Shown here piece by piece: positions 1,637-58,519 of a DNA stretch of 64,000 nt. Source of the DNA: an uncultured Pseudomonadota bacterium (GTDB lineage: Bacteria > Desulfobacterota > Syntrophorhabdia > Syntrophorhabdales > CAYQXL01); assembly GCA_964651435.1 (NCBI GenBank), contig CAZYVU010000010.1:11392-75391 (forward strand). The letters run 5' to 3'. Within the stretch, counting starts at the first letter, position 1. Each line of letters opens with the position of its first letter. Below the pieces are notes generated by a model, which saw only the letters and a program-made list of their open reading frames with translations, searched no databases and was not told the origin of the DNA. Position numbers and translations under genes: made by a program.

Positions 1637-2947
1637 TTACTGCACGGCCTTCACATACCACTCATAGGCCTTGCCGATGCCGCGGCCAAGCTCTACCTTG
1701 TGGTGCCAGCCGAGGCCGTGAAGGCGGGACACATCCATGAGCTTTCTCGGGGTGCCGTCGGGCTTCGATACGTCGAAGGCAATGGCGCCCTTGAAGCCGA
1801 CCACTTGGGCGACCATGAGCGCAAGGTCCCGAATGGTCAAGTCTTTTCCCATCCCGATATTGATCTGCGAAATACCGTTTTCGTAGAGGTCCGGCGCGTT
1901 TATGCGCTCCGCGATGTAGTATATGGCATCGGCCACGTCATCGACGTAGAGGAACTCCCGAAGGGGGCTCCCCGTGCCCCAGACGGTGACGGTGACCGAA
2001 GAGGGGTCCGAAGGGCCCGATGGATGGGCGGCAATCGGTGACCCGGCATTGGTCGAGGGCGCGGCGGCGTTCGGTGACCCGGCGGCTCCTGCAAGGCCCG
2101 TTGTCGCCCCGAGGCCGGTGGCGGGCCGCGAAGGGTCCGTCCCCTGAGTACTAATATTGACAATTGAAGATGTGACCCCGGCAGGGTCCGTGCCCTGAAT
2201 GCCGAAGGCGCCCAGGACGGCCAGAACGTCCGCCTCGGGCGACTGGCGGGAAATCACAATCTCCCTCCCCCCGGACCGGAGCCGGCCATTGCCGTATCTG
2301 AGAAAGTCGGCTCTGATGGCATCCCATTCTCCCTCGGCAAGAAGGCGGGCAAGGTGAAACTTGCGGATCAGCGCCGGCAGGACGTGAGACGTCTCCAGAT
2401 TGTAATTGTCGTTAGGGCCATAGAGGTTCGTGGGCATGACAGAAATGAAGTTGTCCCTGTATTGGCGGTAGTAGCTTTCGCACAGCTTGATGCCTGCTAT
2501 CTTCGCGATGGCATAGGGCTCGTTCGTGTATTCAAGGTAGCCGGAGAGCAGGCACTCTTCCCGCAACGGCTGGGGTGCGAGCTTCGGGTAGATGCAGGAG
2601 CTGCCGAGGAAGATGAGCTTCTTCACGCCGTGCTGGTGGGCCGCCTCGATGAGGTTGGCCTCGATCATGAGGTTCTGGTAAATGAATTCGGCCCGATAGG
2701 TGTTGTTGGCCATGATGCCGCCCACGCGGGCTGCGGCGATGATAACGTATTCCGGTCGCACCTCGGCGAAGAAGCGTTCCGTAGCGTCCTGGCGGATCAG
2801 ATCGAGCTCGTCCAACTCTCGCGTAACGATATTCTTGTGGCCTTCCGCAGCAAACTTGCGCAGGATCGCCGATCCCACCATTCCGGCATGGCCGGCTATG
2901 TATATCTTTGCATCCTTGTTGATTCCGTGTTGGTCTGCTTGCGACAT
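1637..2947 (-). CDS. fcl: GDP-L-fucose synthase (GDP-4-keto-6-deoxymannose 3,5-epimerase/4-reductase) carrying a ~65-codon in-frame insert
   Basis: N-terminal Rossmann [14 protein letters not shown], then [47 protein letters not shown] and [18 protein letters not shown] all match the Fcl/WcaG family as I remember it. The length is 436 aa. Confidence 0.9.
2147..2182. repeat. Core repeat copy inside fcl, bracketed by 15-nt direct repeats
   Basis: 2157-2181 = TTGACAATTGAAGATGTGACCCCGG. Flanks are AGGGTCCGTCCCCTG (2132-2146) and AGGGTCCGTGCCCTG (2183-2197), 51 nt apart. Confidence 0.9.
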
Positions 2948-31014: not shown

Positions 31015-34000
31015 ATGGGCCGCCGTCTTTGCTTGTTCACCTGGACAGTCATTGCTGTCATTTTCTTTACATTTCAGGCATACGCTCACGCGTCCGGCGT
31101 ACCCGGCGCGCCACAGGATGCGCTGGAGGACGCCAGCGACAACACCGTCTGGACGTGGGGCGCAAATTTCAGCGGCGAACTGGGGAATGGTACGTGGGAG
31201 CCCGGCACAAGAACCCCCGGCGAGCTGGCCGACTTTGCGGACGTAACATCCGTCGCCGCCGGCGACGCTTTCACGGTTGCCCTCAAATCGGACGGCACCG
31301 TCTGGACCTGGGGGAACAATGCGTTCGGCCAGCTCGGTGATGGGACGACAGTGAACAAGAATGTGCCGACCCAGGTGCCGACCCTCTCCGACATCATCGC
31401 GATGGCGGCCGGGCCGTATCACACCGTCGCCCTTACATCGGCCGGCACGGTCTGGGCCTGGGGCAGGAATGATTACGGTCAGGTCGGCGATGGGACGACG
31501 ACAAACCGGCTGAGCCCCGTCGTCGTCGCGGGCGTTACGGGGGTTACGGCCATTGCGGCCGGGTATGAGCACACCTTGGCAGTCAGATCGGACGGCACCG
31601 TCTGGACCTGGGGACGCAACAATGGCGGCCAGCTCGGTGACGGGACGACGACAAACCGGCTGAGCCCCGTCCAGGTGTCGGTGCTCACGGGCGCTGTGCG
31701 CTTGGCGGGCGGGGGCTGGCACTCCATGGCCCTCAAGTCGGACGGCACCGTCTGGACCTGGGGGTCGAACCTCCACGGCCAGTTGGGTGACGGCTCGTAC
31801 GACTGGAGCGTCATCCCCAAGGTGGTGCCTGGCTTCGCGGGCATAGCGAACATCGCATGCGGCGGCGACTACTCCATGGCCCTCAAGTCTGACGGCACCG
31901 TGTGGACCTGGGGTTTCGGCGGCCAAGGGTCTCTGGGGACGGGCGAGTGGACCAACAGGCTAAGCCCCGTTCAGGTGCCGGGGCTTACAGGCGTCGGAGG
32001 TGCCACCGCCAGGGCGTGCACGACAATAGCCTGGAAATCAGACGGTTCAGGCTTCTGGGCATGGGGCTGTAACGAAGCCGGCCAGTTCGGGGACGGCACA
32101 TTCGGATACCAGAATCCGAGCCCCACCGCCGTGTCGGCGCTTTCGGGCATCGCGACCATGGCAAGCGGCGCCGGTCACACGGTCGCCCTTGCAAACCCGG
32201 CACCGCCCTCGTCCTACATCCTCACCGTTGCCAAGTCGGGGACAGGAGCGGACGCCGTGACATCGTCTCCGGCTGGCATCGACTGCGGCGCCACGTGCAG
32301 CTATGTCTTTACGGCTGGAACGGTCGTCACGTTGACGGCGACCCCTGCCGCAGGCTCCATGTTCACCGGCTGGTCAGGCGGGGGCTGCTCGGGCACGGGA
32401 ACGTGCACGGTGACGCTTGATGCCGATGTTACGGTCACGGCAACCTTTGCAGCCATGCCGATCCTTACCGTTGCCACGTCAGGGACAGGGTCGGGAACGG
32501 TAACGTCGTCGCCGGCGGGCATCGACTGCGGCGCCACGTGCAGCTATGCCTTTACGGCTGGAACGGTCGTCACGTTGACGGCGACCCCTGCCGCAGGCTC
32601 CATGTTCACCGGCTGGTCAGGCGGGGGCTGCTCGGGCACGGGAACGTGCACGGTGACGATGAACAGCGCTACGGCCGTCACTGCAACCTTCGGCAATACG
32701 GCGGTCTTGACCCTCACGAGATTCGGTACCGGCCTGGGAACCGTCACGTCTTCCCCCGCGGGCATCATTTGCGGGAACACCTGCAGCGCCTCCTTCAGCC
32801 CCGGCTCCGTCGTTACCTTGACCGCAACGCCTGCGGCCGGTTCCACCTTTCTGGGCTGGCTTGGCGGCGGCTGCTCGGGCACGGGAACGTGCACGGTGAC
32901 GCCCGGCGCCGCCACGATGGTGGCCGCCATTTTCTCGTCTGCCGCAACGGGTAACATGGTCTGGGCATGGGGAGACAATTATTATTGTCAGATTGGTGAC
33001 GGGACGACGACGGACCGGCTGAGCCCCGTCCAGGTACCGGGGCTGACGGGCGTCGTGGCTGTTGCCGGAGGGGGCTATCACTCCATGGCCCTCACATCGG
33101 CCGGCACCCTATGGACCTGGGGACTCAATGAGGATGGTCAGCTCGGGGATGGGACAAGAACGCAGAGGTGCAGTCCTGTTCAGGTGCCAGGGCTTACCGG
33201 TGTTACGGCCATTTCGGGAGGTTGGGGTCACTCTCTGGCCGTGAAGGCTGACGGCACCGTCTGGGTATGGGGCGGCAACGGTTACGGTCAGCTTGGGGAT
33301 GGGACGACGACGGACCGGCTGAGCCCCGTCCAGGTACCGGGCATGGCGGGCGTTGTGGCCGCGGCTGGAGGCGGCTATCACTCCCTGGTGTTGACATCTG
33401 ATGGAACCGTATGGGCGTTCGGGCACAATACGAATGGCCAGCTCGGGGACGGCACAACGACGGACCGGCTGAGCCCCGTCCAGGTGCCGGGGCTGACGGG
33501 CATCGTGGCCGTAGCAGCAGGGGGCAGCTATTCTGCGGCCCTTAGATCGGATGGCACGGTCTGGGCATGGGGGGACAATTATTATTGCCAGATCGGGGAC
33601 GGGACGACGACGGACCGGTTGAGCCCCGTCCAGGTGCCGGGGCTGACGGACGTTGCCGGGATAGCGGGCGGCGATGCCCACGTTGTAGCAAAAAAGACGG
33701 ACGGCACCGCCAGGGCATGGGGATACAACGCTTACGGTCAGCTTGGGGATGGGACGACAACAAAGAGGTGCAGCCCCGTTCAGGTGTCGGGGCTGACAAA
33801 TGTTGCCGGCATGGCCGGGGGGTACGGGCACAGCCCGGCGCTCACATCAAGCGGTACCTTTTGGGCCTGGGGCCGCAATTTTAACGGTCAGCTTGGGGAT
33901 GGGACGACAACAAACAGATCAAGTCCTGGCCAGGTACCGGGGCTGACGGGAGGTCTCAGCGTTTCAGCGGGCTGGGAACACAGCATCGCCCTTCGGGCCG

Positions 34001-37000
34001 GTGAGACGCCCTCTTCCTACGCCCTTGCTGTCACAAGGACCGGTACCGGCGCGGGCGCGGTAGCCTCCTCCCCGGCCGGCATCGACTGCGGGGCCACCTG
34101 CAGCGCCTCCTTCAGCGCCGGCACCGTCGTTACCTTGACCGCAACGCCCGATGCCGGTTCCATCTTTACGGGCTGGTTGGGCAGCGGGTGCTCGGGCACG
34201 GGAACATGTACGGTGACACTGAACAGCAATACGGTGGTTGCCGCCCTCTTTTCACCGGAGGCAACCAGCAATGTGGTGTGGACCTGGGGACACAACGAAT
34301 ATGGCCAGCTCGGGGATGGAACGACGGCGGACAGACACAGCCCGATTGCTGTATCGGGCGTCACGAATGCCGTTGGGATTACCGGTGGGGATGCCCATAC
34401 GCTGGCTGTCACATCGGCCGGTACGGTCTGGGCGTGGGGGTGGAACCTCTATGGCCAGCTCGGGGACGGAACGACGGCGGACAGGCTGAGCCCCGTCCAG
34501 GTGCCGGGCATGGCGGGCGTTGCCGATGCTGGGGCCGGCGCCTCTCATACCGTCGCGGTGAAGTTCGACAGCACGGTCTGGGCCTGGGGAAGCAACAACT
34601 CCGGCCAAGTCGGGGACGGGACGACGACAAACAGGCTAAGCCCCGTTCAGGTGCCGGGGCTGACGGGTGTGGTGGCCATCGCGGCCGGTGGTTACCACTC
34701 CATGGCCCTCAAATCGGACGGGACCGTCTGGGCGTGGGGATGGAATGCATTCGGTCAAATCGGGGACGGGACGACGACAAACAGGCTAAGCCCCGTTCAG
34801 GTGCCGGGGCTGACGGGTGTGGTGGCCATCGCGGCCGGTGCTTACCACTCCATGGCCCTCAAATCGGACGGGACCATCTGGGCGTGGGGAGGAAATATGT
34901 ACGGCCAGGTCGGTGACGGGACAGTGACGGACAGGCTGAGTCCCGTTCAGGTGCCCGCCTTCACCGGTACTAAGGGTATTGCAGCGGGGGGCTTTCACTC
35001 TGTGGCCCTCAAATCGGATGGGACCATCTGGGCGTGGGGGGACAACACCCTGGGACAAATCGGGGACGGCACGACAACGGAACGGCGCAGTCCCGTTCAG
35101 GTGCCGGGCATGGCAGCAGTTGCACGAATCGGAGGCGGCGGCGGACACACGGTAGCCCTCGCGTCGAACGGCACCCTCTGGACTTGGGGCAACAACTCCA
35201 AGGGTCAGATCGGGGACGGAACGACGACGAACAGGCTGAGCCCCGTCCAGGTGCCGGGGCTGACGGCGGTTACGGGGATTGCCGGCGGGTGGAAGCACAC
35301 AATGGCCGTCAGGGCCGGAGGAGAGCCCACTTCCCACACCCTTACCGCCACAAGGACCGGTACCGGCGCGGGCGCGGTAGCCTCCTCCCCGGCCGGCATC
35401 GACTGCGGGGCCACCTGCAGCGCCTCCTTCAGCGCCGGCACCGTCGTTACCTTGACCGCAACGCCCGATGCCGGTTCCATCTTTACGGGCTGGTTGGGCA
35501 GCGGGTGCTCGGGCACGGGAACATGCACAATAACGCTCAGCGGCGACAGCATCGTCGTTGCCCTATTCTCACAGCAGGGAACGGATAGCAGCCTCTGGAC
35601 CTGGGGCAACAACGAGAATGGCCAGCTCGGGGACGGAACGACGACGAACAGGCTAAGCCCCGTTCAGGTGCCGGGGCTGACGGGTCTGCAAGGAACGGCG
35701 GGCGGAGCGGAACACTCAATGGCCCTGAAGTCGGACGGCACGGTCTGGGCATGGGGCAACAATTTCTACGGCCAGCTCGGGGATGGGACGACGACGGACA
35801 GCCTGAGCCCTATCCAGGTGCCGGGGCTCGCGGGCATAGTTGCCGTGGCAGCCGGGGACTATCACAGTGCGGCCTTGAAGTATGATGGTACGGTCTGGAC
35901 CTGGGGATCAAACGGCAACGGACAGCTCGGGGACGGTACGACGACGGACAGCCTGAGCCCTATCCAGGTGCCGGGGCTCGCGGGTGTCATCGACCTTGCG
36001 AGCGGCGGTTATCACATTGTGGCGCTCAAATCGGATGGCACGGTCCGGGCCTGGGGTTGGAACGAGGACGGCCAGATTGGGGACGGAACCACTACAGAGA
36101 GACTGAGCCCTGTCCAGGTGCCGGGGCTCGCGGGTGTTAAAGCTATCGCCACCGGCGACTATCATTCTATGGCCATCAAGTCCGACGGAACGGTCTGGGC
36201 CTGGGGCTGGAATGAGAATGGTCAACTTGGGGATGGGACGACGACGAACGGGCTGAGCCCTGTTCAGGTACCGGGGCTTGCGGGTATGACAGCAGTCGCT
36301 GGCGGGAACTCCCACACCGTTGCCCTAAAATCGGACGGTACGGTCTGGGCCTGGGGTTGGAACGAAGCGGGTCAGCTTGGGGACGGAACGACAACCCAGC
36401 GGCTGAGCCCTGTCCAGACAACGGGGCTGACGGGCGCTGTCACTGTCGCCACCGGCGGCTATCATTCCCTGGCCATCAAGTCGGACGGTACCCTCTGGAC
36501 CTGGGGCTGGAACGAGGACGGTCAACTTGGGGACGGGACGACGACGAACAGGCTGAGCCCTGTCCAGGTACCGGGGCTTGCGGGTATCGCGAAGATTGCC
36601 GCGGGATACGTCCATTCCCTTGCCCTCAAGTTTCCCTCCTCCTATATGCTCACCGTTACTAAGACGGGGGCCGGCACGGGCACCGTGACGTCGTCACCGG
36701 CGGGCATCGACTGCGGGGCCGTCTGCAGCGCCCAGTTCATCCAAACTACGGTCATTACCCTCACTGCCACGGCAGCATCCAACTCCTCCCTAACGGGCTG
36801 GTCAGGCTGTGACAGCACCCCTGCTGCAAACCAATGTGTGGTAACCATGAATGCCGCACGGTTTGTAGAAGCGTCATTCGCGCTGAAGACCTACGTCGTC
36901 ACCCCGTCTGCGGGCGCCAACGGCACGATGACACCTAACACGCCACAGACCGTCACCCATAACGCCACCACCTCTTTTACCGTTACCCCCGCCACGGGCT

Positions 37001-38571
37001 ACCACATCGACTCCGCAACGGGCTGCGGCGGGACCCTTTCGGGCTCCACCTACACCACGGGCCCCATCACCGCCGACTGCACGGTCAGTGCCACCTTTGC
37101 CATTAACACGTACACCATCTCCGCCTCCGTCTCCGGAGGCCACGGCACGGTCACCGTCGTAACCCCTACGGTTCCCCATGGCGGCACGGCTACTATTAAT
37201 ATTTCCCCCGACACGGGTTACCACATAGCAGGCATTACGGACAACGGCATCTCCGTGAGGATAATAAACCCCTACACCATCCAGAACGTCACGGCGGCCC
37301 ACACCATCGTCGCCACCTTTGAAGTGAACAGGTACACGCTCACGGCTACTACATCCGGACCGGGCACCGTAAGCGCCGCCGGCCTCATATGCTCCGGAAG
37401 CACGTGCACGGGCACGTATGATTACGGCACAACCGTGGCAGTGACGGCCGCACCCGCTGCGGGCTCCATGCTGAGCGGCTGGTCAGGCTGTGACAGCTCA
37501 TCGGGTAACACGTGTTCGGTGAGCATGACGTCCGACCGGAGTATCAGCGCAACCTTCATCGTTATCAAGACCTTGACCGTTTCCAAAGCCGGTTCCGGTA
37601 CCGTTGCCTCGGCCCCTCCGGGCATCGCTTGCGGCAGCGCCTGCAGTGCACCGTTCACGCCCGGCACCGTCGTAACGCTCACCCCAACTCCTGACACAGG
37701 GAATGTCTTTGCTTACTGGTCGGGGGCCTGCACGGGTAAGCTTGCGACCTGTCTTGTAACGATGGACGCCGACAAGACGGTGGGGGCCGTCTTCGTGCCG
37801 GCGAAAACAAAGACAGTAAAGCTCACCGTCACAAAGGTGAAGACAGCCAAAGGGGACGGCACCGTCGAGAGCAGCGACGGTACGATCAATTGCGGAAAGG
37901 ATTGCTCGGAACTTTTTTATCCCAATACACCCGTCCTTCTCCGCGCCACCCCCAACGCCGACTCGGTGTTTACCGGCTGGTCGGGCACAGGCATTACCTG
38001 TCCCGGTACGGGGACCTGCTCCGTTACCATGGACAAGGCCTATACGGTGAAGGCTACATTTGTCGGGCCGTCGCTTCTGAAGGTCCAAAAGGCCCCAAAG
38101 AACAAGGGAACGGGCGTCATCACCAGCAGCGACGGCGCCATTGACTGCGGAGAGGAGTGTCAGAAGAGTTATGTTTACAACACCGCCGTCACCCTGACGG
38201 CAACGCCTGATCCCGGCTCCGTCTTCATCTCCTGGACGGGCTGTGATGCTGTGTCGGCAAACGTGTGCACCTTTGCGATGAAAAAAGCGAGGACCGCCAA
38301 GGCCACTTTTGAAGGCCCCGTCATCGTCACGGTGACAAGGGCATACCAGAAGAAGGGCGCGGGGACCGTTACGTCTTCCCCGTCCGGCATCGACTGCGGA
38401 ACCACATGCAAGGCCGGGTTTACGAAGGGGACTGAGGTCACCCTGACGGCTACCCCTGCTGCCGGCTCGGTCTTTGGCGGCTGGTCAGGGGGCGGTTGTT
38501 CGGGGACGGGGACGTGTACCATCACCGCCGAGAAGACTACGACCGTGAGGGCGACGTTTATCGGGAGGTGA
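31015..38571 (+). CDS. Giant secreted protein: 4 x seven-bladed RCC1-like beta-propellers interleaved with 13 Ig-like (divergent InlB B-repeat-type) modules
   Basis: Signal-like N-terminus MGRRLCLFTWTVIAVIFFTFQAYAHA. There are 28 blades with the signature DGTVWxWGxNxxGQLGDGTTxxRxSPVQVxGL, counted 7+7+7+7. The modules are of the type GTVTSSPAGIDCGxxCS..TLTATPxxGSxFxGWSGxxCSGTGTCTVT. Confidence 0.9.
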   Translation: MGRRLCLFTWTVIAVIFFTFQAYAHASGVPGAPQDALEDASDNTVWTWGANFSGELGNGTWEPGTRTPGELADFADVTSVAAGDAFTVALKSDGTVWTWGNNAFGQLGDGTTVNKNVPTQVPTLSDIIAMAAGPYHTVALTSAGTVWAWGRNDYGQVGDGTTTNRLSPVVVAGVTGVTAIAAGYEHTLAVRSDGTVWTWGRNNGGQLGDGTTTNRLSPVQVSVLTGAVRLAGGGWHSMALKSDGTVWTWGSNLHGQLGDGSYDWSVIPKVVPGFAGIANIACGGDYSMALKSDGTVWTWGFGGQGSLGTGEWTNRLSPVQVPGLTGVGGATARACTTIAWKSDGSGFWAWGCNEAGQFGDGTFGYQNPSPTAVSALSGIATMASGAGHTVALANPAPPSSYILTVAKSGTGADAVTSSPAGIDCGATCSYVFTAGTVVTLTATPAAGSMFTGWSGGGCSGTGTCTVTLDADVTVTATFAAMPILTVATSGTGSGTVTSSPAGIDCGATCSYAFTAGTVVTLTATPAAGSMFTGWSGGGCSGTGTCTVTMNSATAVTATFGNTAVLTLTRFGTGLGTVTSSPAGIICGNTCSASFSPGSVVTLTATPAAGSTFLGWLGGGCSGTGTCTVTPGAATMVAAIFSSAATGNMVWAWGDNYYCQIGDGTTTDRLSPVQVPGLTGVVAVAGGGYHSMALTSAGTLWTWGLNEDGQLGDGTRTQRCSPVQVPGLTGVTAISGGWGHSLAVKADGTVWVWGGNGYGQLGDGTTTDRLSPVQVPGMAGVVAAAGGGYHSLVLTSDGTVWAFGHNTNGQLGDGTTTDRLSPVQVPGLTGIVAVAAGGSYSAALRSDGTVWAWGDNYYCQIGDGTTTDRLSPVQVPGLTDVAGIAGGDAHVVAKKTDGTARAWGYNAYGQLGDGTTTKRCSPVQVSGLTNVAGMAGGYGHSPALTSSGTFWAWGRNFNGQLGDGTTTNRSSPGQVPGLTGGLSVSAGWEHSIALRAGETPSSYALAVTRTGTGAGAVASSPAGIDCGATCSASFSAGTVVTLTATPDAGSIFTGWLGSGCSGTGTCTVTLNSNTVVAALFSPEATSNVVWTWGHNEYGQLGDGTTADRHSPIAVSGVTNAVGITGGDAHTLAVTSAGTVWAWGWNLYGQLGDGTTADRLSPVQVPGMAGVADAGAGASHTVAVKFDSTVWAWGSNNSGQVGDGTTTNRLSPVQVPGLTGVVAIAAGGYHSMALKSDGTVWAWGWNAFGQIGDGTTTNRLSPVQVPGLTGVVAIAAGAYHSMALKSDGTIWAWGGNMYGQVGDGTVTDRLSPVQVPAFTGTKGIAAGGFHSVALKSDGTIWAWGDNTLGQIGDGTTTERRSPVQVPGMAAVARIGGGGGHTVALASNGTLWTWGNNSKGQIGDGTTTNRLSPVQVPGLTAVTGIAGGWKHTMAVRAGGEPTSHTLTATRTGTGAGAVASSPAGIDCGATCSASFSAGTVVTLTATPDAGSIFTGWLGSGCSGTGTCTITLSGDSIVVALFSQQGTDSSLWTWGNNENGQLGDGTTTNRLSPVQVPGLTGLQGTAGGAEHSMALKSDGTVWAWGNNFYGQLGDGTTTDSLSPIQVPGLAGIVAVAAGDYHSAALKYDGTVWTWGSNGNGQLGDGTTTDSLSPIQVPGLAGVIDLASGGYHIVALKSDGTVRAWGWNEDGQIGDGTTTERLSPVQVPGLAGVKAIATGDYHSMAIKSDGTVWAWGWNENGQLGDGTTTNGLSPVQVPGLAGMTAVAGGNSHTVALKSDGTVWAWGWNEAGQLGDGTTTQRLSPVQTTGLTGAVTVATGGYHSLAIKSDGTLWTWGWNEDGQLGDGTTTNRLSPVQVPGLAGIAKIAAGYVHSLALKFPSSYMLTVTKTGAGTGTVTSSPAGIDCGAVCSAQFIQTTVITLTATAASNSSLTGWSGCDSTPAANQCVVTMNAARFVEASFALKTYVVTPSAGANGTMTPNTPQTVTHNATTSFTVTPATGYHIDSATGCGGTLSGSTYTTGPITADCTVSATFAINTYTISASVSGGHGTVTVVTPTVPHGGTATINISPDTGYHIAGITDNGISVRIINPYTIQNVTAAHTIVATFEVNRYTLTATTSGPGTVSAAGLICSGSTCTGTYDYGTTVAVTAAPAAGSMLSGWSGCDSSSGNTCSVSMTSDRSISATFIVIKTLTVSKAGSGTVASAPPGIACGSACSAPFTPGTVVTLTPTPDTGNVFAYWSGACTGKLATCLVTMDADKTVGAVFVPAKTKTVKLTVTKVKTAKGDGTVESSDGTINCGKDCSELFYPNTPVLLRATPNADSVFTGWSGTGITCPGTGTCSVTMDKAYTVKATFVGPSLLKVQKAPKNKGTGVITSSDGAIDCGEECQKSYVYNTAVTLTATPDPGSVFISWTGCDAVSANVCTFAMKKARTAKATFEGPVIVTVTRAYQKKGAGTVTSSPSGIDCGTTCKAGFTKGTEVTLTATPAAGSVFGGWSGGGCSGTGTCTITAEKTTTVRATFIGR
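32275..32658 (+). repeat. Intragenic direct repeat: two 141-nt copies (32275-32415, 32518-32658), 1 mismatch
   Basis: Read directly. The offset is 243 nt (81 codons). It covers adjacent Ig-like modules. Confidence 0.9.
34032..35525 (+). repeat. Intragenic long-range direct repeat: identical 177-nt blocks at 34032-34208 and 35349-35525
   Basis: Read directly. The offset is 1317 nt (439 codons). Both encode TRTGTGAGAVASSPAGIDCGATCSASFSAGTVVTLTATPDAGSIFTGWLGSGCSGTGTC. Confidence 0.85.
34610..34890 (+). repeat. Intragenic tandem repeat: two 131-nt copies (34610-34740, 34760-34890), 2 mismatches
   Basis: Read directly. The offset is 150 nt, which is one RCC1 blade. Confidence 0.85.
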
Positions 38572-42137: not shown

Positions 42138-42695
42138 ATGGAAGAGAAGCTCGCAAACCCGGCACCGCTCGGCCTCATGGGATTCGGCATGACAACGGTG
42201 CTCCTCAACATCCACAATGCCGGCTTTTTCCCCATCGGGTCCATGATCCTCGCCATGGGCTTGTGCTACGGGGGGCTGGCCCAGATCATTGCCGGCATCA
42301 TGGAGTTCAAGAAGGGCAACACCTTCGGATTTACCGCTTTTACGTCATACGGCCTCTTCTGGTGGACCCTCGTGTTTATCCTCGTTTTCAAGGCCCTTCC
42401 CGGCAATCCCGAACCTTTTATGGGCTGGTATCTCTTCATGTGGGGACTCTTCACCTTCTTCATGTGGTTCGGCACCTTCGGCAAGAACAGGCTCATCCAG
42501 TTCGTATTTCTGAGTCTCACCATCCTCTTCTGGCTCCTGGCCATTCGCGATTGGACGGGAAGTCACACCGTCGGCACCATAGCGGGCTGGGAAGGCATCA
42601 TCTGCGGCCTTTCGGCGGTCTACCTCGCCATGGCTGAGGTGCTCAACGAGGCAAAGGGTCGGACCGTTCTGCCAATCGGGGACCTGGGCAAGTAA
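42138..42695 (+). CDS. satP: GPR1/FUN34/YaaH family acetate/succinate transporter
   Basis: [23 protein letters not shown] is the family signature. There are six hydrophobic segments. AGGAGG RBS before the ATG at 42138. Confidence 0.88.
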
Positions 42696-42785
42696 GTTCG
42701 GAGTGGGGAGTTCGGAGTGAAAGGCAGAAGCGGGGAAACGGCGAGAAGAGTTCGGAGTTCGGAGACCGCAGCAAGTGAGTTCGGG
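42694..42785. repeat. Cluster of GAGTTCGGRG short repeats
   Basis: AAGTTCGGAG 42694-42703, GAGTTCGGAG 42708-42717, GAGTTCGGAGTTCGGAG 42748-42764 and GAGTTCGGG 42777-42785. The same decamer occurs at 5558-5567 and 5579-5588. Confidence 0.85.
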
Positions 42786-42867
42786 TGCTAAAGAGCGTTC
42801 TCTTGCTCTGCGCTCCTAAAATTCAACGCTCTTGAAGGCCGTCAGACCGCTCGTCGAGTCCCGCAGT

Positions 42868-43614
42868 CTACCGCCGGTTTACGCTCCGGAGGAGTGCCTC
42901 CTGTGCCTTGGGTGAAAGACCAAGGCCAGGCAGGTCCTTCCGCAGGGATTCGACAGTACCGAAGCCCCCCACGTATCCGTTGACCCGCGTAACGGCCGGG
43001 GAAGCAATAAAATCCTTAAGGTCCGGATACCTGGCATAGTATTCCTTCGCGATCTCCGGCCGGCCTCGCAGGTAATACTTCTGGTGGTAGTCCTCGGCAA
43101 GATAGAACTTGCGAAAGGGTACGACCTCCGTTTGGGCCTTGTGGCCCACTTTCTTTTCAAGCTGTCCCAAAAAGGCCGCGGCGGCCTTCTGCTGCTCGGC
43201 GCTGTGGTAAAAGATGACAGAGGCATACTGACGTGACCACGACCGGCTGAAGGGTTCGTGGCTGTCGGCAAAAACCTTAAGAAGCCCTTCATAGGTCACC
43301 CTTGCCGGGTCAAAGTCTATCTGAATCGTCTCGGAATGGTCACCCAAACTTCGGTAGGTTGGATTTTCTTTGGTCCCGCCGCTGTAGCCGACACGCGTCC
43401 TCACCACTCCATCGATAAGCCCGAACCGGGCATCGGGACCCCAAAATCACCCAAGGGCAAAGGTGGCTGTTTCAAGCGCCTTCTTTTCGCCGGCCCGGCT
43501 GTGGTCGACCACTCCTGGGAGCATAAGCATGCAGATGGCCGTGAGTCCAACAAGGGATAGGTGGGCCAAGAGGCTGCCCGGGGACTTTACCCTGATACGC
43601 AATCTGCTTTTCAT
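42868..43614 (-). CDS. msrA: Peptide methionine-S-sulfoxide reductase MsrA with in-frame UGA (selenocysteine) at the catalytic position and an N-terminal signal/anchor
   Basis: ORFs 43447..43725 and 42868..43407 are in the same frame and are separated only by TGA at 43447-43449. The read-through gives ..ETATFALG-U-FWGPDARFGLIDGVVRTRVGYSGG, i.e. the GCFWG active-site motif with U for C. The start MKSRLRIRV is at 43614. Confidence 0.8.
43413..43435 (-). promoter_or_regulatory. Candidate bacterial SECIS hairpin
   Basis: Minus-sense CGAUGCCCG-GUU-CGGGC-UU-AUCG begins 12 nt after the UGA codon. It has a GC-rich upper stem, a GU-containing apical loop and a UU bulge. Confidence 0.5.
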
Positions 43615-43762
43615 GCTCACAATATAAGTCCTTTTGGCCGTTTCGCAAGGGATGGTTGCGATGGACTCCGGTGAAGGGGCGCTTGCCGGCTCCAGCATTG
43701 ATACGGAGGGAAATCGCAAAGGCAAAGAAGGGCGCGTCGTTCGTAAGGGAATTGGGGCGGAG

Positions 43763-43793
43763 AAAAAGCCGGCCCGGCATTATCCGGGCCGGC
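43763..43793 (-). terminator. Rho-independent terminator downstream of csp
   Basis: Perfect 10-bp stem GCCGGCCCGG/CCGGGCCGGC (43768-43777 / 43784-43793) with a 6-nt loop, followed on the minus strand by TTTTT (43763-43767). Confidence 0.8.
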
Positions 43794-43804
43794 TTCGAGA
43801 TGGC

Positions 43805-44005
43805 TTACCTTTTTACTACGTTTGCTGCTGCAGGACCCTTCGGTCCGCTGACAACGTCAAAAGTCACCGCATCCCCTTCTGATAAGGATCTGAAACCACT
43901 GCCCTGAATGACCGTATGATGAACAAAAACATCGGAGCCATCGTCTGTGGTAATAAATCCAAATCCTTTTGCATCATTAAACCACTTCACTGTACCTCTT
44001 GCCAT
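43805..44005 (-). CDS. Cold-shock domain protein (CspA family)
   Basis: [15 protein letters not shown] (RNP1) and DVFVHH (RNP2). 66 aa. Confidence 0.95.
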
Positions 44006-44170
44006 ATTGGCACCTCTTTGTTTGAATTTGAAGGATACGGAGTCTAAGTTAAGAAGAAACGAGAAACAAGAAAATTTCTGCGGTTGCTACTAACCGATAC
44101 TTCCGGCTGCTTCGACCATTATTATCGCACAGACCGGCGAGAATTACAAGAGCCGTTAAAAAAAGCCACG

Positions 44171-52985: not shown

Positions 52986-53960
52986 ATGAAGATTGTAACG
53001 TTGGAAGAGGGGTTTCTGACCCCGGATGTACTGAAGATATTTGGCGAGAAGGCCGACACAGATCCGTACACCATGAAGACTTCCGCCGCCCTCGTCGGCA
53101 CCAATGTGATGGAGGCGTATCTGGACCTGGGGGAAGGGCGGATTGCCGCCATGGACGAAGCGGGAATCGATATGCAGGTCCTTTCCTTTTCCGCGCCCCA
53201 GATTGCAGATACCGAGACGGCCATTCACATCATGACGGAGGCCAACGATAAGGCCGCAGAAGCCGTCAGCAAATATCCATCGCGATTTGCCGCCTTTGCA
53301 GCACTGACGGCAACGGATCCCTCGGCCGTCGTTACGGAATTTGAGCGGGTCTTGGCTAAGCCGGGCTTTGTGGGCGGATTCATCTGCGGAACCATGAACG
53401 GCGAATTCCTCGATGAGAGGAAATATTGGCCCATTCTTGAGTGCGCCGAGGCGCATCGTGCGCCCATCTATCTCCATCCGTATTTTCCTCTTCCCGGGGT
53501 TATGCAGACCTATTTCAAAGGGCGGGAAGAGCTATCGGCGCCGGTATGGGGCTTCATGGTCGACGCGAGCTGTCATTTTCTTCGGCTGCTGACGGCCGGG
53601 GTCTTTGACCAGTTCCCGGAACTGAAGATCATCCTGGGGCACCTCGGCGAATCGATCCCCTACAACCTTGACAGGATCAACACGCGCCTATCCGCCTTCG
53701 CACGCGAGAAGCTAAAAAGAAGCCCGGCGGACTATATTCTGAACAATCTGGTCATCACGACCAGCGGCAACTTCTCTCCTCAGTCGCTGCTATGCGCAAT
53801 GAACACGATCGGCGCAGACAATATTCTATTTTCGGCTGACTGGCCCAACGAATCGAACAAAACGGCCGTCGATTTCCTGGAACACCTGCCCGTCAGCAGA
53901 CCCGATCTGGAAAAGATTGCTTACAGGAACGCGGAACGGGTGCTCGGGTTAACGTCATAA
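52986..53960 (+). CDS. Amidohydrolase-2 (ACMSD-like decarboxylase/hydrolase) family protein
   Basis: Size and pattern (IDMQVLS.., YLHPYFP, ILGHLGE, FSADWP) are typical of PF04909-type TIM-barrel metal hydrolases. GGAGG RBS. Confidence 0.75.
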   Translation: MKIVTLEEGFLTPDVLKIFGEKADTDPYTMKTSAALVGTNVMEAYLDLGEGRIAAMDEAGIDMQVLSFSAPQIADTETAIHIMTEANDKAAEAVSKYPSRFAAFAALTATDPSAVVTEFERVLAKPGFVGGFICGTMNGEFLDERKYWPILECAEAHRAPIYLHPYFPLPGVMQTYFKGREELSAPVWGFMVDASCHFLRLLTAGVFDQFPELKIILGHLGESIPYNLDRINTRLSAFAREKLKRSPADYILNNLVITTSGNFSPQSLLCAMNTIGADNILFSADWPNESNKTAVDFLEHLPVSRPDLEKIAYRNAERVLGLTS

Positions 53961-54626: not shown

Positions 54627-55065
54627 AAGTGACCTTAAATCAAGCAATGACAGGTATCGCGAGGAGAGACCACGACTTACCCCTGCTCTACGGTGTGTCG
54701 TGAGATTGGTCTTTGTGGATGACAAAAAGACATTTTTCAGGAATACTCAAAATGGTATAGTTTTGGATATCAATAATGCCGACGGACTCTCTATATGAAC
54801 GCGGGCTCAAGGGAAAGAGTTGCCCATGCATATTAGATTAAAGATCCGGGAGCCCTCCGGGATTGTTGGTATCTACAAGAAGCGCTCACTATACCTATCC
54901 ATGACGGGGTACCGATAATTATGCCCGAAATGAAAGAAGATCTGTCGGTTGAGTCTTCAGAGGAGGATTAGGTTTTGTCCGTAGAAACCGAAGACCCCAT
55001 TGGGACAAACGCCTGAGGCTTATTCAACAATTGGTTGCGGCTCATTGCAGAGACAGGAGGAATCC

Positions 55066-57432
55066 ATGGATAAAGACATCACTCAGGGTCGGTTTGACGG
55101 CCTGTCGCGTCGAAGATTTCTTGCAATGCTGGGGGCTGCCGGCGCAACTCTTGCTGCATACAAGATCGGTGCAAAGAGGGCGTCTGCCGCCGAGAGTATT
55201 GAACCCGTTTCCGTTCAGGACGTACAACAGGGCGAGGACATCTTTGCATACATAAAGAGAATGAAAGGCGGTTTTGATCAGAGATTCTTCCAGCAGGTTA
55301 TCGGCGCCGCCAATGAGTTCAAAGAAGGAGACTTGACGATCGGAGTAGGTGCTAAGGATGACGCTGCCCGTCACAATGCCCGCGCTCTTCTGTCGAGCAC
55401 GAAGATCAAAGACCTCTATGAGCATCCCCTTCTCGTAGACAGCCTCCAGAAATTGATCTGGCAGACTACCGACCAGGCCCGGTATGCCGAGATTAAAGAG
55501 TGGACCATGGGGCGGTTGAAAGAATTTCTCCTTACACAGCCCGAGGTCGAGATTAAAGCCATTATGGCTGGTCTCACAAGCGACACCATCGGCTGCGTGC
55601 CCAAGCTGATGACCAATGAAGAGCTTATAAAACTGAGTCAAAAGATCTTCAACGTGCTGCCCGGCGCCAAAATAGGGGCAAAAGGCTACATGGGCGCCCG
55701 CATCCAGCCCAATTCACCAACAGACCATCCCGATGATGTGGCGTGGCAGGTTTTTGACGCATTTTCCTATGCAACTGGTGATATCGTCATCGGGACCAAC
55801 CCCGTCGACAGCCAGGTCAAGAATAACCTTGCGGTGCAAAAGACCCTCAGAGAGATTGTGGAAGCATTCCAACTCCAGGATACGATCCCCTGGTGCGTGC
55901 TTGCCCATATCGACGTGCAGGCAGAGGTGAGAAAACAATATCCCGGAATGGTCGAAACGATGTTCCAAAGCATCGCCGGAACGGATGACTGCAACAAGAC
56001 CTTCGATGTCACCGTTGATAAGATTCTGCATTATGCGAGATCGAAGAGGGGCGAAAGATACGGGCTTTACTTCGAGACAGGGCAGGGTTCCGAGTTCACC
56101 AACGGGGCGGCAAAGGGCGTCGATATGATGGTGCTCGAGTCCCGTAAATACGGTTTTTCCAGGGCCGTCGGCATGGAGCTGGCCAAAGTTCAGCCCAAAG
56201 GCGCCTGGCTCCACGTCAATGATGTGGCAGGCTTTATCGGGCCTGAAGTCTTCAAGACACGCGATCAATTGGTGCGGTGCTGCCTTGAAGACCTGGCAAT
56301 GGGCAAACTCCATGGACTGACTATCGGCCTCGATATTTGTTCCACCCTTCACATGACAGTGAGTTTGGATGATCTGGATTGGTGCCAGGATCAGATCATG
56401 CCGGCTAACCCCGTGTACCTCATTGCGCTGCCTACCAAGAACGATCCCATGCTTGGGTATCTGACAACGGCCTTTCAGGACCATGTTCGCTTGAGAGATA
56501 GATTCGGCTATAAAGTTGACGATGCAATGTGGAGTTTCTATAAAAGGATCGGGATCGTCGATAAGAACAACGGATATACAGGCCATTTCGGGGATCCGCT
56601 CTGGGTCTATTACCAGTATTGTCTTGCCAAGGAAGACGCACGCTCGAAGGACGCCATCTATGCCGAGGGGAAACGAAAAATGAAAGAGGTGGAGGAGAGA
56701 GGCGTTGATTTGGCCACCGGTCATGGCAAACATCTCTGGGATCTCAATCCCGAACTGGCGGCCAAAGTTACAACGCTCTACCATGATGCAAAAAAATGTA
56801 TCCGGACGGAACTCACCCCCGAGTTCGTAAAAACAATACCCAATGCGTTGCCGATCAAGACTCTATCCGGGAGCCGCGATGAGTACATTTCCCACCCCGA
56901 AACAGGTGAAAAGTTACGCCCTCAGTCGATAACGGCCCTGGTAAAACTGAGAGATTCCTGGGTAGACCCGGCTAACCCGGTCAAAGGCCAAATCGTCATT
57001 TCCGACGGTCTGAACGCCAACGCCATTATGGACGAGAACCACCTTGCCCCGTATCTCGCTGAAATACGAAAACTCTTTGCCGAGGCCGGCGTTACGCTGA
57101 GCAATACAAACATCGTCGTCACCGGAGGAAGGGTCCGCGCAGGATACAGGATTGGGGAGCTGCTCTTTGAAAAGTCGAACGCCAACGAGTTTAGAGCCGT
57201 CCTGCACATCATCGGCGAACGGCCCGGAACCATGCATCATTCCTATTCCGTCTACATCACGGTTGTAAGGGGCAGCGTGTGGGCGCAGAAAAAAATCGAC
57301 CATGACATAACAAAGGTCGTCTCCAATATCGCCGATACGGCCTTACCGCCCAAGGAAGCGGCTCGGGAGACGTTGATGATCATACGGGAGCTGGTAGGGA
57401 AAGAAGCCCATAACAGCCGCCGCCTCCGCTGA
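55066..57432 (+). CDS. Ethanolamine ammonia-lyase-like EutB-EutC fusion with an N-terminal twin-arginine (Tat) signal
   Basis: Tat signal SRRRFLAMLGAAGATLAA...ASAAE. The EutB part has ARIQPN, GDIVIGTNPV, VLAHI, LYFETGQGSEF, GFIGPEV and YLTTAFQDH. The EutC part has VISDGLNANAI, GGRVRAGYRIGELL, IIGERPG and VSNI. AGGAGG RBS before the ATG at 55066. Confidence 0.85.
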   Translation: MDKDITQGRFDGLSRRRFLAMLGAAGATLAAYKIGAKRASAAESIEPVSVQDVQQGEDIFAYIKRMKGGFDQRFFQQVIGAANEFKEGDLTIGVGAKDDAARHNARALLSSTKIKDLYEHPLLVDSLQKLIWQTTDQARYAEIKEWTMGRLKEFLLTQPEVEIKAIMAGLTSDTIGCVPKLMTNEELIKLSQKIFNVLPGAKIGAKGYMGARIQPNSPTDHPDDVAWQVFDAFSYATGDIVIGTNPVDSQVKNNLAVQKTLREIVEAFQLQDTIPWCVLAHIDVQAEVRKQYPGMVETMFQSIAGTDDCNKTFDVTVDKILHYARSKRGERYGLYFETGQGSEFTNGAAKGVDMMVLESRKYGFSRAVGMELAKVQPKGAWLHVNDVAGFIGPEVFKTRDQLVRCCLEDLAMGKLHGLTIGLDICSTLHMTVSLDDLDWCQDQIMPANPVYLIALPTKNDPMLGYLTTAFQDHVRLRDRFGYKVDDAMWSFYKRIGIVDKNNGYTGHFGDPLWVYYQYCLAKEDARSKDAIYAEGKRKMKEVEERGVDLATGHGKHLWDLNPELAAKVTTLYHDAKKCIRTELTPEFVKTIPNALPIKTLSGSRDEYISHPETGEKLRPQSITALVKLRDSWVDPANPVKGQIVISDGLNANAIMDENHLAPYLAEIRKLFAEAGVTLSNTNIVVTGGRVRAGYRIGELLFEKSNANEFRAVLHIIGERPGTMHHSYSVYITVVRGSVWAQKKIDHDITKVVSNIADTALPPKEAARETLMIIRELVGKEAHNSRRLR

Positions 57433-57487: not shown

Positions 57488-58519
57488 ATGAAAGAAGAGG
57501 CGCAGATGAATGCCCTTTGTGTATCAATTGTTTTCGCATTATTTCTGGCAGGTTTTGCCATCCCCGGCGACTCGTACGGAAAAGATGAGGCGGTGCGGTA
57601 TGCTGTTGTGGACAACCACATCCACTTCCTCGATTTTGTCCAGGAAACGGACGGCTTCGAACGGCTCATTCAGGCCATGGACAAGGCCGGCGTTGAGAAG
57701 GCGGTCATCTTCGGTGTGCCGGTCGTAAAAACCTGGACAGAGGCAGACCCGGTTCGGCCGGTCTACTACCTTGACACGGATTCTCCCGCTTACTATTTCA
57801 GCGGCACAGACTTCATCCTTGCCCACGACCTCTCACGGCAACCGCCCGAGGTAAGGAGAAGATTCTTCCCCTTTCTGTGCGGATTCAACCCCGTAGACAT
57901 GAACGCTGCAAAGCAGATCGAGTTGATGCTGAAGACGTACCCGGGGTTCTGGAGGGGCATCGGCGAGATCATGTCTCGCCACGACGAATTGACCGCCTTC
58001 ATCCATGGTCAGACCCCCCGTGCGGACCACCCGGCGCTGATGCTCGTCTACAAGTTTGCAGCCGCTCAAGGGCTCCCCGTTCTTATCCACCATAACATCT
58101 CCTCCGCCCGGAAGGAAGATCCTATCTATTTGAGAGAACTGGAGCATGCCATACGGGAAAATCCCCGGACGGTCTTTATCTGGGCGCATGGCGGTATCTC
58201 GCGGCGCCTTGAGGTCCCCTCTTTGCTCACCGATCTCAGGAGAATGCTATCGGCTTACCCGAACCTCTCCATCGATATCTCGTGGGTCATTTACCCTGAC
58301 TATATAGCAAAAGACAAAGAATCAATGGCGAGGTGGGTCGCTTTCATAGAAGAGTTCCCGGACAGGGTCGTGATCGGCTCCGATATGGTCGGGCACTGGA
58401 AAACATATCCCCGGGAAATCATGAAGTACTACCGCCTGCTCGACTCCCTCAAGCCCGCCACGGCGGAGAAAGTTGCGAGAAGCAACATCCTGCGCCTCCT
58501 CGGCGAGAAGGCTCCTTAG
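57488..58519 (+). CDS. Periplasmic amidohydrolase (TIM-barrel metal-dependent hydrolase)
   Basis: Sec-type signal NALCVSIVFALFLAGFAIPG. VVDNHIHFLDF (HxH metal motif), LIHHN, FIWAHGG and VIGSDM. Confidence 0.8.
   Translation: MKEEAQMNALCVSIVFALFLAGFAIPGDSYGKDEAVRYAVVDNHIHFLDFVQETDGFERLIQAMDKAGVEKAVIFGVPVVKTWTEADPVRPVYYLDTDSPAYYFSGTDFILAHDLSRQPPEVRRRFFPFLCGFNPVDMNAAKQIELMLKTYPGFWRGIGEIMSRHDELTAFIHGQTPRADHPALMLVYKFAAAQGLPVLIHHNISSARKEDPIYLRELEHAIRENPRTVFIWAHGGISRRLEVPSLLTDLRRMLSAYPNLSIDISWVIYPDYIAKDKESMARWVAFIEEFPDRVVIGSDMVGHWKTYPREIMKYYRLLDSLKPATAEKVARSNILRLLGEKAP

Follow-up and report, generated by a model that had tools for sequence, protein, structure and literature searches.

A methionine sulfoxide reductase A gene with an in-frame UGA codon and a predicted export signal in an uncultured Syntrophorhabdales bacterium

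Introduction

The selenoprotein methionine sulfoxide reductase A (MsrA) of Clostridium (Alkaliphilus) oremlandii, CoMsrA (Kim et al., 2009, as cited in PMC13188914 and PMC4333827), natively contains selenocysteine (Sec), consists of 209 residues and has no cysteine at all ('1-Cys type') (PMC4333827). The activity of the Sec form exceeds that of the Cys version 20-fold, the enzyme is regenerated by glutaredoxin and not by thioredoxin, and its helical domain is essential (PMC4333827). An earlier survey counted an MsrA selenoprotein in Syntrophobacter fumaroxidans (PMC1794560), so that, together with CoMsrA, a Sec-containing MsrA family was already known. In this study, a gene of this kind was analyzed in a stretch of 64,000 nucleotides (nt), called the window below, from an uncultured Syntrophorhabdales bacterium (assembly GCA_964651435.1, contig CAZYVU010000010.1, positions 11,392 to 75,391). 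The gene, msrA, carries an in-frame TGA codon at the catalytic cysteine position and very probably encodes a functional selenoprotein MsrA. As a whole, the locus is likely to be a functional monocistronic gene for a 1-Sec MsrA of the C. oremlandii type with an N-terminal export signal; the catalytic domain is judged, a little less firmly, to be extracytoplasmic, and details such as signal cleavage and a leaderless messenger RNA (mRNA) are put forward with lower confidence than this core.

Neisseria PilB is one of several extracytoplasmic Msr systems of the Cys type, in which CcdA or thioredoxin-like genes adjoin msrAB. These systems, which further include MsrAB2 of Streptococcus pneumoniae with Etrx1/2 and CcdA (PMC3914529), the periplasmic MsrAB of Haemophilus influenzae (PMC9404787) and MsrAB of Fusobacterium nucleatum (PMC9239216), resemble the enzyme described here in that an N-terminal signal or anchor carries an MsrA domain out of the cytoplasm, and presumably, like this enzyme, they repair oxidized methionine in envelope proteins. 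Reports on extracytoplasmic Msr describe CcdA-type electron transporters and thioredoxin-like proteins alongside it (PMC3914529, PMC7034828, PMC9239216). MsrPQ shares the presumed compartment and the task of envelope methionine sulfoxide repair; however, it has an unrelated fold and a molybdopterin cofactor, draws electrons from the quinone pool via MsrQ and reduces both diastereomers (PMC6316033).

In a full-text literature search, we did not find a description of an exported form of the known Sec-MsrA family, although a mention in primary papers from 2009–2011 is possible. Since export is known both for selenoproteins of other families and for Cys-MsrAs, an exported Sec-MsrA extends what has been described and is no surprise of kind.

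The msrA reading frame and its annotation

Translation of 43614..42868 on the reverse strand gave a single frame of 248 codons and a terminal stop, in which the TGA at 43449–43447 is the one internal stop; no frameshift or second internal stop was found across the 248 codons. The full translation reads MKSRLRIRVKSPGSLLAHLSLVGLTAICMLMLPGVVDHSRAGEKKALETATFALG-(TGA)-FWGPDARFGLIDGVVRTRVGYSGG...SVNRR-(stop), with the TGA at codon 56. In its local context, ...ETATFALG-(TGA)-FWGPDARFGLIDGVVRTRVGYSGG..., this codon replaces the Cys of the MsrA motif GCFWG, and the active-site string of the window protein becomes FALG-U-FWGPDARFG. Three features describe the coding region.

42868..43614, reverse strand: complete msrA coding sequence, 248 codons and TAG, with predicted Sec as codon 56 (translation, Pfam and NCBIfam matches, CoMsrA alignment)
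43447..43449, reverse strand: TGA predicted to be read as Sec, residue 56, at the catalytic Cys position of G-C-F-W-G; conserved in relatives
42868..43407, reverse strand: truncated open reading frame (ORF) of 179 residues with a GTG start at 43407, reported by gene callers instead of the full gene (ORF listing; database proteins P0001, 99% identical and 179 residues long, and P0002–P0005)

The preliminary description of this locus had held that two same-frame ORFs are parted by the TGA alone, that read-through would restore GCFWG with U for C, and that annotation would probably split or truncate the gene. The single frame with one internal TGA, located at the catalytic position of a complete and conserved MsrA, confirms the first two points. 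The third is evident both from the mechanical ORF listing, which splits msrA into an upstream piece (43447..43725) and the 179-residue piece with its GTG start (42868..43407), and from the databases, where P0001–P0005 have 179 residues and the upstream piece is called as a separate small gene. Three mis-annotated forms were found in all, namely the 179-residue truncations P0001–P0005, split genes, and proteins with Trp at the Sec site (P0012 and P0020). The gene call of P0012 (locus L168) shows GWFWG; its DNA was checked and has TGA at that codon, and the call was therefore translated with a code in which UGA is Trp. P0020 also shows GWFWG, and here translation of UGA as Trp is deduced from the protein sequence alone.

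These gene calls bear on two other explanations of the TGA. In the first, the TGA is a true stop, the upstream ORF is unrelated and the 179-residue ORF is an inactive remnant of a degenerate MsrA without its active site; gene callers do annotate separate small upstream ORFs and 179-residue products, and Sec machinery was not found in the window and about 20 kb of flank, although the absence of any frameshift or second stop in 248 codons already speaks against such a pseudogene. In the second, UGA is read through not as Sec but either as Trp or Gly, if the genetic code is an alternative one, or as Cys or Trp, if near-cognate suppression occurs, a view favored by the translation of P0012 with Trp (GWFWG) and, again, by the lack of Sec machinery in the window. 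However, TGA is the ordinary stop of many window genes, without plausible continuation beyond it, and an alternative genetic code is therefore excluded; furthermore, Trp or Gly at the catalytic position would kill the enzyme. A scan of the window for TGA-interrupted ORFs gave msrA as the only credible case.

Relationship to C. oremlandii MsrA

Profile queries were made with Cys substituted for the TGA. Pfam PMSR (PF01625) matched residues 49–183 (E = 2.4e-40; 138.7 bits against a cut-off of 23.7), starting 7 residues before the TGA and spanning it, and NCBIfam TIGR00401 (msrA) matched with 118.2 bits against a trusted cut-off of 108.1. PF20939 (MsrA_helical, 'Selenoprotein methionine sulfoxide reductase A, helical domain') matched residues 208–236 at a borderline 23.8 bits (cut-off 23.7), and the alignment with CoMsrA supports this call, since it continues without gaps through that domain and reaches chain residue 200 of 209. 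The protein is thus divided as follows.

43066..43470, reverse strand: MsrA catalytic (PMSR) domain, residues 49–183 (PF01625, TIGR00401)
42871..43065, reverse strand: C-terminal helical domain typical of selenoprotein MsrA, residues 184–248 (PF20939, CoMsrA alignment)

The preliminary description had proposed alignment with MsrA homologues as a check, and the nearest solved structure proved to be the known selenoprotein MsrA of C. oremlandii: the top PDB matches were its entries 4LWJ, 4LWK, 4LWL, 4LWM, 4U66, 7C13 and 4W8C (E ~1e-51), and pairwise comparison with CoMsrA gave 47% identity over 182 residues with no gaps. Because a solved homologue aligns without gaps at this identity, the fold of the window protein can be regarded as settled. 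The crystallized Cys version of CoMsrA reads FALG-C-FWGPDAQFG where the window protein has FALG-U-FWGPDARFG, and the motifs RVGY(S/A)GG, LGDHSE and RQY are identical in the two proteins in the alignments. The Tyr, Glu and Tyr within these motifs are substrate-binding or catalytic residues according to the established MsrA literature. No Cys occurs after residue 28 in the window protein, and hence none after the membrane segment, as in a 1-Cys type enzyme without a resolving Cys; no Cys follows the Sec in 93 of 130 distinct TGA relatives.

The window protein and CoMsrA are therefore alike in the active site, in the two-domain build and in having no other Cys in the catalytic domain, and if the signal of the window protein were cut between SRA and GE, its Sec would be residue 15 of about 207, compared with Sec16 of 209 in CoMsrA. 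By every feature that sequence can test, the window gene belongs to the CoMsrA type within the known bacterial Sec-MsrA family. That this nearest characterized homologue natively has Sec also argues against a different amino acid at the UGA (PMC4333827). The two proteins differ at the N-terminus: CoMsrA, a cytoplasmic enzyme that (seleno)glutaredoxin and not thioredoxin recycles, starts without an extension (PMC4333827), whereas the window protein adds a conserved 41-residue export signal or anchor, with which its predicted localization is not that of a cytoplasmic, glutaredoxin-recycled enzyme. Glutaredoxin, the cytoplasmic partner of CoMsrA, would not reach an enzyme outside the cytoplasm.

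Some relatives vary in other respects. About 20 Sec-MsrA relatives (for example, L006, L012, L015, L051, L099, L106 and L107) have a single Cys 196–204 residues past the Sec, in a short C-terminal tail; this Cys is missing from the window protein and CoMsrA, and may be a resolving Cys that defines a '2-residue' subclass. A motif (I/V)PP(I/L/V)D stands 15–25 residues before the catalytic codon in most Sec- and Cys-MsrA relatives, exported or cytoplasmic, and is found neither in the window protein, which has a shortened linker, nor in CoMsrA.

Conservation of the TGA codon

The catalytic codon was compared in two sets of relatives. The genome set consisted of the closest 80 species-representative loci, and its count also takes in three near-identical copies (L001–L003) and the window itself; the metagenome set consisted of 80 contig loci, 79 of them with the motif.

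Genome set, 78 loci with the motif: TGA in 72, TGT or TGC in 6
Metagenome set, 79 loci with the motif: TGA in 70, TGT or TGC in 9

TGA is the majority state among the closest relatives, and the earlier impression that Sec-MsrA is known from 'a few organisms' must be abandoned. The carriers of TGA are metagenome-assembled genomes (MAGs) with the labels delta-proteobacteria/Desulfobacterota, Syntrophorhabdus, Dehalococcoidia, Syntrophomonadaceae, Desulfotomaculum/Desulforamulus, Synergistaceae, Planctomycetota, Nitrospirae, Holophagales, Rokubacteria and Halobacteroidaceae. The orthologues L085 and L087, with about 75% protein identity, keep the TGA, and in the eight codons before it (ETATFALG) the window differs from them by synonymous changes only. 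Judged from these comparisons, both flanks of the TGA are under purifying selection.

A decaying pseudogene cannot give this pattern of a TGA retained across relatives with only synonymous changes in the codons before it. The preliminary description had named an unrelated upstream ORF and a degenerate downstream MsrA as the outcome that would overturn it; instead, the Pfam match spans the TGA and the flanking codons are conserved. With the TGA kept in about 90% of the closest relatives, over many phyla, and with an RNA element right after it that is conserved at synonymous sites (described below), a pseudogene is a highly improbable explanation.

Several relatives differ in copy number or architecture. 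A Cys-codon msrA-like gene (FAGGC...) and a TGA msrA share a contig stretch at L124/L125, and two copies occur in some genomes (contigs CAVZNY010000007.1, with L026 and L044, and CAVVCD01, with L022 and L031). L034, L048, L105 and L127 are MsrB–MsrA fusions in which the MsrA half has the TGA and SECIS, some with an N-terminal signal or lipobox (L048), and P0015, a Cys version of 394 residues, is a lipoprotein MsrB–MsrA.

The stem-loop after the UGA codon

In Escherichia coli fdhF, the selenocysteine insertion sequence (SECIS) is a stem-loop that lies within the coding sequence a short distance past the UGA and has a small, G-containing apical loop. The hairpin of the window, CGAUGCCCG-GUU-CGGGC-UU-AUCG at 43435–43413, starts at the 12th nucleotide past the UGA and folds as drawn in the preliminary description, with -9.6 kcal/mol. 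Its functional core would be a G/C-rich stem of 5–8 bp with a 3-nt loop, the GUU of which starts 20 nt after the UGA.

43413..43435, reverse strand: putative bacterial SECIS stem-loop, with the core GCCCG-GUU-CGGGC at 43431–43419 and the loop GUU at 43426–43424

The hairpin was compared in 129 distinct TGA forms, aligned without gaps. Every one of them has G24-U25-U26 as the loop, and the CCC/GGG on either side of it hardly varies; the shared core can be written NCCCG-GUU-CGGGN. With codons numbered from the UGA (codon 1), entropy at the third position is 0.11, 0.00, 0.47 and 0.29 bits for codons 7–10 (Ala/Ser, Arg/Gln, Phe and Gly), compared with 1.7–2.0 bits at four-fold sites close to the stem but outside it (codons 4, 5 and 11–21). 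The Arg in the stem is always CGG and the Gly almost always GGG, although the window genes favor GGC for Gly. Furthermore, three pairs covary, namely 19–31 (U-A 51, G-C 45), 18–32 (C-G 55, U-A 25) and 23–27 (G-C 99, A-U 16), and the covariation score of 0.223 exceeds those of all 500 column shuffles (mean 0.107) and of every slid register. The conserved hairpin element is absent from the relatives with a Cys codon, which are few. On these comparative data, the hairpin is under selection at the RNA level.

The element drawn earlier stands only in part: a hairpin is present after the UGA, and its upper 5–8 bp and GUU loop are conserved, whereas the lower CGAU/AUCG stem with its UU bulge (43435–43432 with 43416–43413) was rejected as a functional part, three of its four pairs forming in only 21–31 of 70 relatives. 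The conserved portion is a putative SECIS, which would recruit SelB. A hairpin downstream of the UGA whose small loop keeps a G is a signature of SelB-dependent decoding, and together with the points given above it makes read-through as an amino acid other than Sec very unlikely. Compared with the bacterial SECIS model of Zhang and Gladyshev (PMC1088965), the element agrees in being a stem-loop inside the coding sequence soon after the UGA and in the G of its small apical loop; it differs in its very small loop of 3 nt, its G/C-rich stem of 5–8 bp and a 13-nt core that is identical over many phyla.

Start codon and transcription unit

The sequence TTGCGA-16 nt-TATATT at 43648–43621 was the only sigma-70-like promoter found in 42600–44100.

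43643..43648, reverse strand: -35 hexamer TTGCGA; CCTTGC is invariant in L085 and L087
43621..43626, reverse strand: -10 hexamer TATATT, ending 6 nt before the ATG at 43614
43763..43793, reverse strand: intrinsic terminator of the upstream cold-shock gene, GCCGGCCCGG-ATAATG-CCGGGCCGGC-TTTTT, with a 10-bp all-G/C stem and a 6-nt loop, read from the sequence

Both CCTTGC and CTTATATT-N6-ATGAA are invariant, with the same spacing, in the window, L085 and L087, and the surrounding non-coding DNA is unconserved. Since the -10 hexamer ends 6 nt before the ATG at 43614 and this spacing is conserved, the ATG is taken as the start codon; the same distance indicates that the msrA mRNA is probably leaderless or nearly so. 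The terminator was not listed by the simple scan that gave the promoter. As it is a strong terminator of the cold-shock gene located upstream, msrA should form its own, monocistronic transcription unit.

N-terminus and export

The N-terminus of the window protein reads MKSRLRIRVKSPGSLLAHLSLVGLTAICMLMLPGVV... and has the following layout.

43492..43614, reverse strand: N-terminal export signal or anchor, residues 1–41, with an n-region at 1–13, an h-region at about 14–34 ending in P-G, and the c-region VVDHSRA

Five Lys or Arg lie in the first ten residues, followed by a hydrophobic stretch of about 20 residues that ends in Pro-Gly and then by VVDHSRA-GEKK; the top 15-residue Kyte–Doolittle hydropathy is 2.23. 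The net charge after the hydrophobic segment is about zero, compared with the five Lys or Arg before it, and by the positive-inside rule an N-in/C-out orientation with the catalytic domain outside the cytoplasm is predicted. S-R-A fits the (-3,-1) rule, which makes the bond between SRA and GE a possible signal peptidase I site; the N-terminus would be either a cleaved signal or a membrane anchor. An MltF-like lytic transglycosylase and an O-antigen-ligase-like gene, both recognized by Pfam in the window, suggest a diderm envelope and hence a periplasmic location.

The N-termini of the orthologues L085 and L087 differ in sequence and share this character, ending in the lipobox-like VLWGC and LAAGC. 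The window protein itself was considered as a canonical lipoprotein and rejected, because its only Cys in this region, C28 in TAIC, has Ile at -1. More widely, relatives were counted as having a hydrophobic segment if a 15-residue Kyte–Doolittle value of at least 2.0 occurred in frame before the TGA.

Genome TGA relatives: hydrophobic segment in 51 of 71
Metagenome TGA relatives with complete upstream sequence: 42 of 59
Control frames of the same DNA: 4 of 142

Lipoboxes are present in at least 24 relatives. Twin-arginine motifs such as NRRSFMKLLG and SRRVFLKGMG were counted in at least seven, and a lipobox often follows them. A few relatives, L009, L010, L039 and L058, look cytoplasmic like CoMsrA. 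Export thus is, as far as these N-termini indicate, the commonest state of the Sec-MsrA clade. The assignment of the N-terminus as a signal peptide or anchor in the preliminary description is upheld by the hydropathy, the charge bias, the lipobox and twin-arginine motifs of relatives and the conserved promoter and ATG, while its remark that an exported Sec-MsrA is less expected is contradicted by the counts above.

As a separate observation, twin-arginine translocation (Tat) motifs were noted in L013, L014, L026, L027, L041, L061, L071, L089, L101, L110, L114, L124, L137, L143, L147 and L150, usually with a lipobox after them (NRRSFMKLLG...SAC, SRRVFLKGMG...KAC). The encoded proteins would be selenoproteins that Tat exports as lipoproteins, although no cofactor is evident that would call for this route.

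A selenoprotein MsrA that stays in the cytoplasm could arise if an internal start skipped the hydrophobic N-terminus, or if the segment were an anchor with the domain facing inward. CoMsrA is cytoplasmic and recycled by glutaredoxin (PMC4333827), the four relatives named above have no hydrophobic N-terminus, no periplasmic reductant gene is linked to msrA, and the h-region is long and anchor-like. However, the only in-frame starts between the hydrophobic segment and the UGA are the GTG codons 35 and 36 at the C-terminal edge of the segment, of which GTG 35 overlaps an AGGAG-like sequence and GTG 36 begins 2 nt after it, with no further start before the UGA; an internal start was judged unlikely from these positions together with the conserved promoter, which sets the transcription start at ATG 43614. 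An inward-facing domain conflicts with the charge distribution across the segment, and the orthologues and most relatives bear lipobox or Tat signals, which are specific to export. A cytoplasmic location is therefore considered unlikely, and an enzyme carried out of the cytoplasm is preferred.

Decoding machinery, neighboring genes and reductant

The neighbors of msrA are the cold-shock gene, a PAS-GGDEF gene and a SatP-like gene. All-against-all clustering of 595 neighbor ORFs of the relatives gave no conserved partner, and a Pfam tally of 68 immediate neighbors gave no recurrent family beyond Lactamase_B (6 of 68), with one DsbH-like match. Compared with the Cys-type envelope systems, which are MsrA–MsrB fusions with or without thioredoxin, the window enzyme would contain Sec and stand alone: the protein has only the PMSR and MsrA_helical domains, and the linkage to CcdA/DsbD and thioredoxin-like genes that is typical of PilB and MsrAB2 was not seen at the window locus. 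Because the mature domain has no Cys, the reaction intermediate would need reduction by an external thiol donor, and since no linked partner was found among the neighbors, this donor would be encoded elsewhere or be a small molecule.

A number of results weigh against an exported selenoprotein. As to the RNA, the z-score of the 73-nt region was +1.0 against dinucleotide shuffles, and 59% of synonymous-codon shuffles made with window codon usage fold at least as well; the stability of the window hairpin is unexceptional, and the case for a SECIS is therefore carried by the comparative data. No Rfam family reached its gathering score in the window, and a relaxed threshold around the UGA gave chance matches only. 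The covariation of pair 19–31 partly coincides with an amino-acid coupling of Ala/Ser to Leu/Ser; because each of its two bases is the first of a codon (Ala/Ser and Leu/Gln/Ser), constraints on RNA and on protein are not fully separable at this pair. As to the decoding machinery, no tRNA genes were found in the 64-kb window, and selA, selB, selD and tRNA-Sec were not recognizable in the window and about 20 kb of extra flank, which is uninformative for the whole genome; Pfam scans of ten large window genes gave nothing relevant to Sec machinery. As to export, the window N-terminus has no canonical lipobox and a linker far shorter than those of the orthologues, and for a signal that is cleaved its h-region is long. 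Finally, no CcdA/DsbD or thioredoxin-like partner is adjacent in the window or recurrent in the relatives, and an extracytoplasmic catalytic cycle would thus have no linked electron donor.

Other observations concern genes apart from msrA. In L006, a Dehalococcoidales MAG, an Oxidored_molyb gene (2133–2915, forward strand; MsrP/YedY-like, E = 2e-35) lies directly upstream of an exported Sec-msrA, so that two different envelope sulfoxide reductases may stand side by side. Within the window, an ORF of 810 residues at 55000–57432 on the forward strand is a fused ethanolamine ammonia-lyase, EutB (E = 3.7e-140) and EutC (E = 7e-31), which starts with a twin-arginine-like signal (MDKDITQGRFDGLSRRRFLAMLGAAGAT) and is flanked by Amidohydro_2 genes at 52986–53960 and 57488–58519; a fused and apparently Tat-targeted B12 lyase is unusual. 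An ORF of 2518 residues at 31015–38571 on the forward strand has an N-terminal signal-like sequence, and its counterpart in L001, called shorter (1224 residues), matches RCC1/WD40-type beta-propeller repeats.

Proposed mechanism

In the proposed scheme, transcription would start from TTGCGA-16 nt-TATATT, with leaderless translation from ATG 43614. The first approximately 41 residues would engage the general secretory pathway, or the signal recognition particle, a route considered because the h-region is long, and carry the catalytic domain across the cytoplasmic membrane. The UGA at codon 56 would be decoded as Sec by SelB and tRNA-Sec, with SelB recruited by GCCCG-GUU-CGGGC. The domain would fold outside the cytoplasmic membrane, and the product would be either a soluble protein of about 207 residues after cleavage or an N-terminally anchored protein. 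The selenolate would then attack Met-(S)-O sulfoxide in envelope proteins, giving methionine and a selenenic acid, and the latter would be reduced by an external thiol donor encoded elsewhere.

A broader reading is offered tentatively, as a possibility well short of even chance: exported 1-Sec MsrAs may be a widespread system of envelope methionine sulfoxide repair in anaerobes, targeted by the general secretory or Tat pathway, often lipid-anchored and without an operon-encoded CcdA/thioredoxin relay, in which Sec is favored for direct recycling by available thiol or sulfide. If this is true, the selenenic acid or selenenylsulfide intermediate of Sec would be recycled directly by an extracytoplasmic thiol or sulfide reductant. 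As a corollary, the nascent signal peptide might be targeted to the membrane in step with the slow decoding of UGA, 56–90 codons into the message.

Implications

This gene and well over 100 relatives are stored in a wrong form, either as 179 residues without the active site, as two genes or with a catalytic Trp. Because of this mis-annotation, the selenoproteome and the envelope stress defenses of anaerobic Desulfobacterota, Dehalococcoidia, Syntrophomonadaceae, Synergistota, Planctomycetota and others are undercounted. The 13-nt SECIS core is a handy search key and a compact natural SECIS for engineering. The only characterized bacterial Sec-MsrA is cytoplasmic and glutaredoxin-dependent, whereas the dominant natural form of the clade appears to be exported. 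Two questions follow: how strict anaerobes recycle a selenenic acid outside their cytoplasm, and why they use selenium for envelope methionine repair. The practical value of the finding thus lies in correcting a systematic mis-annotation, and its scientific value in the recycling question for an extracytoplasmic 1-Sec MsrA.

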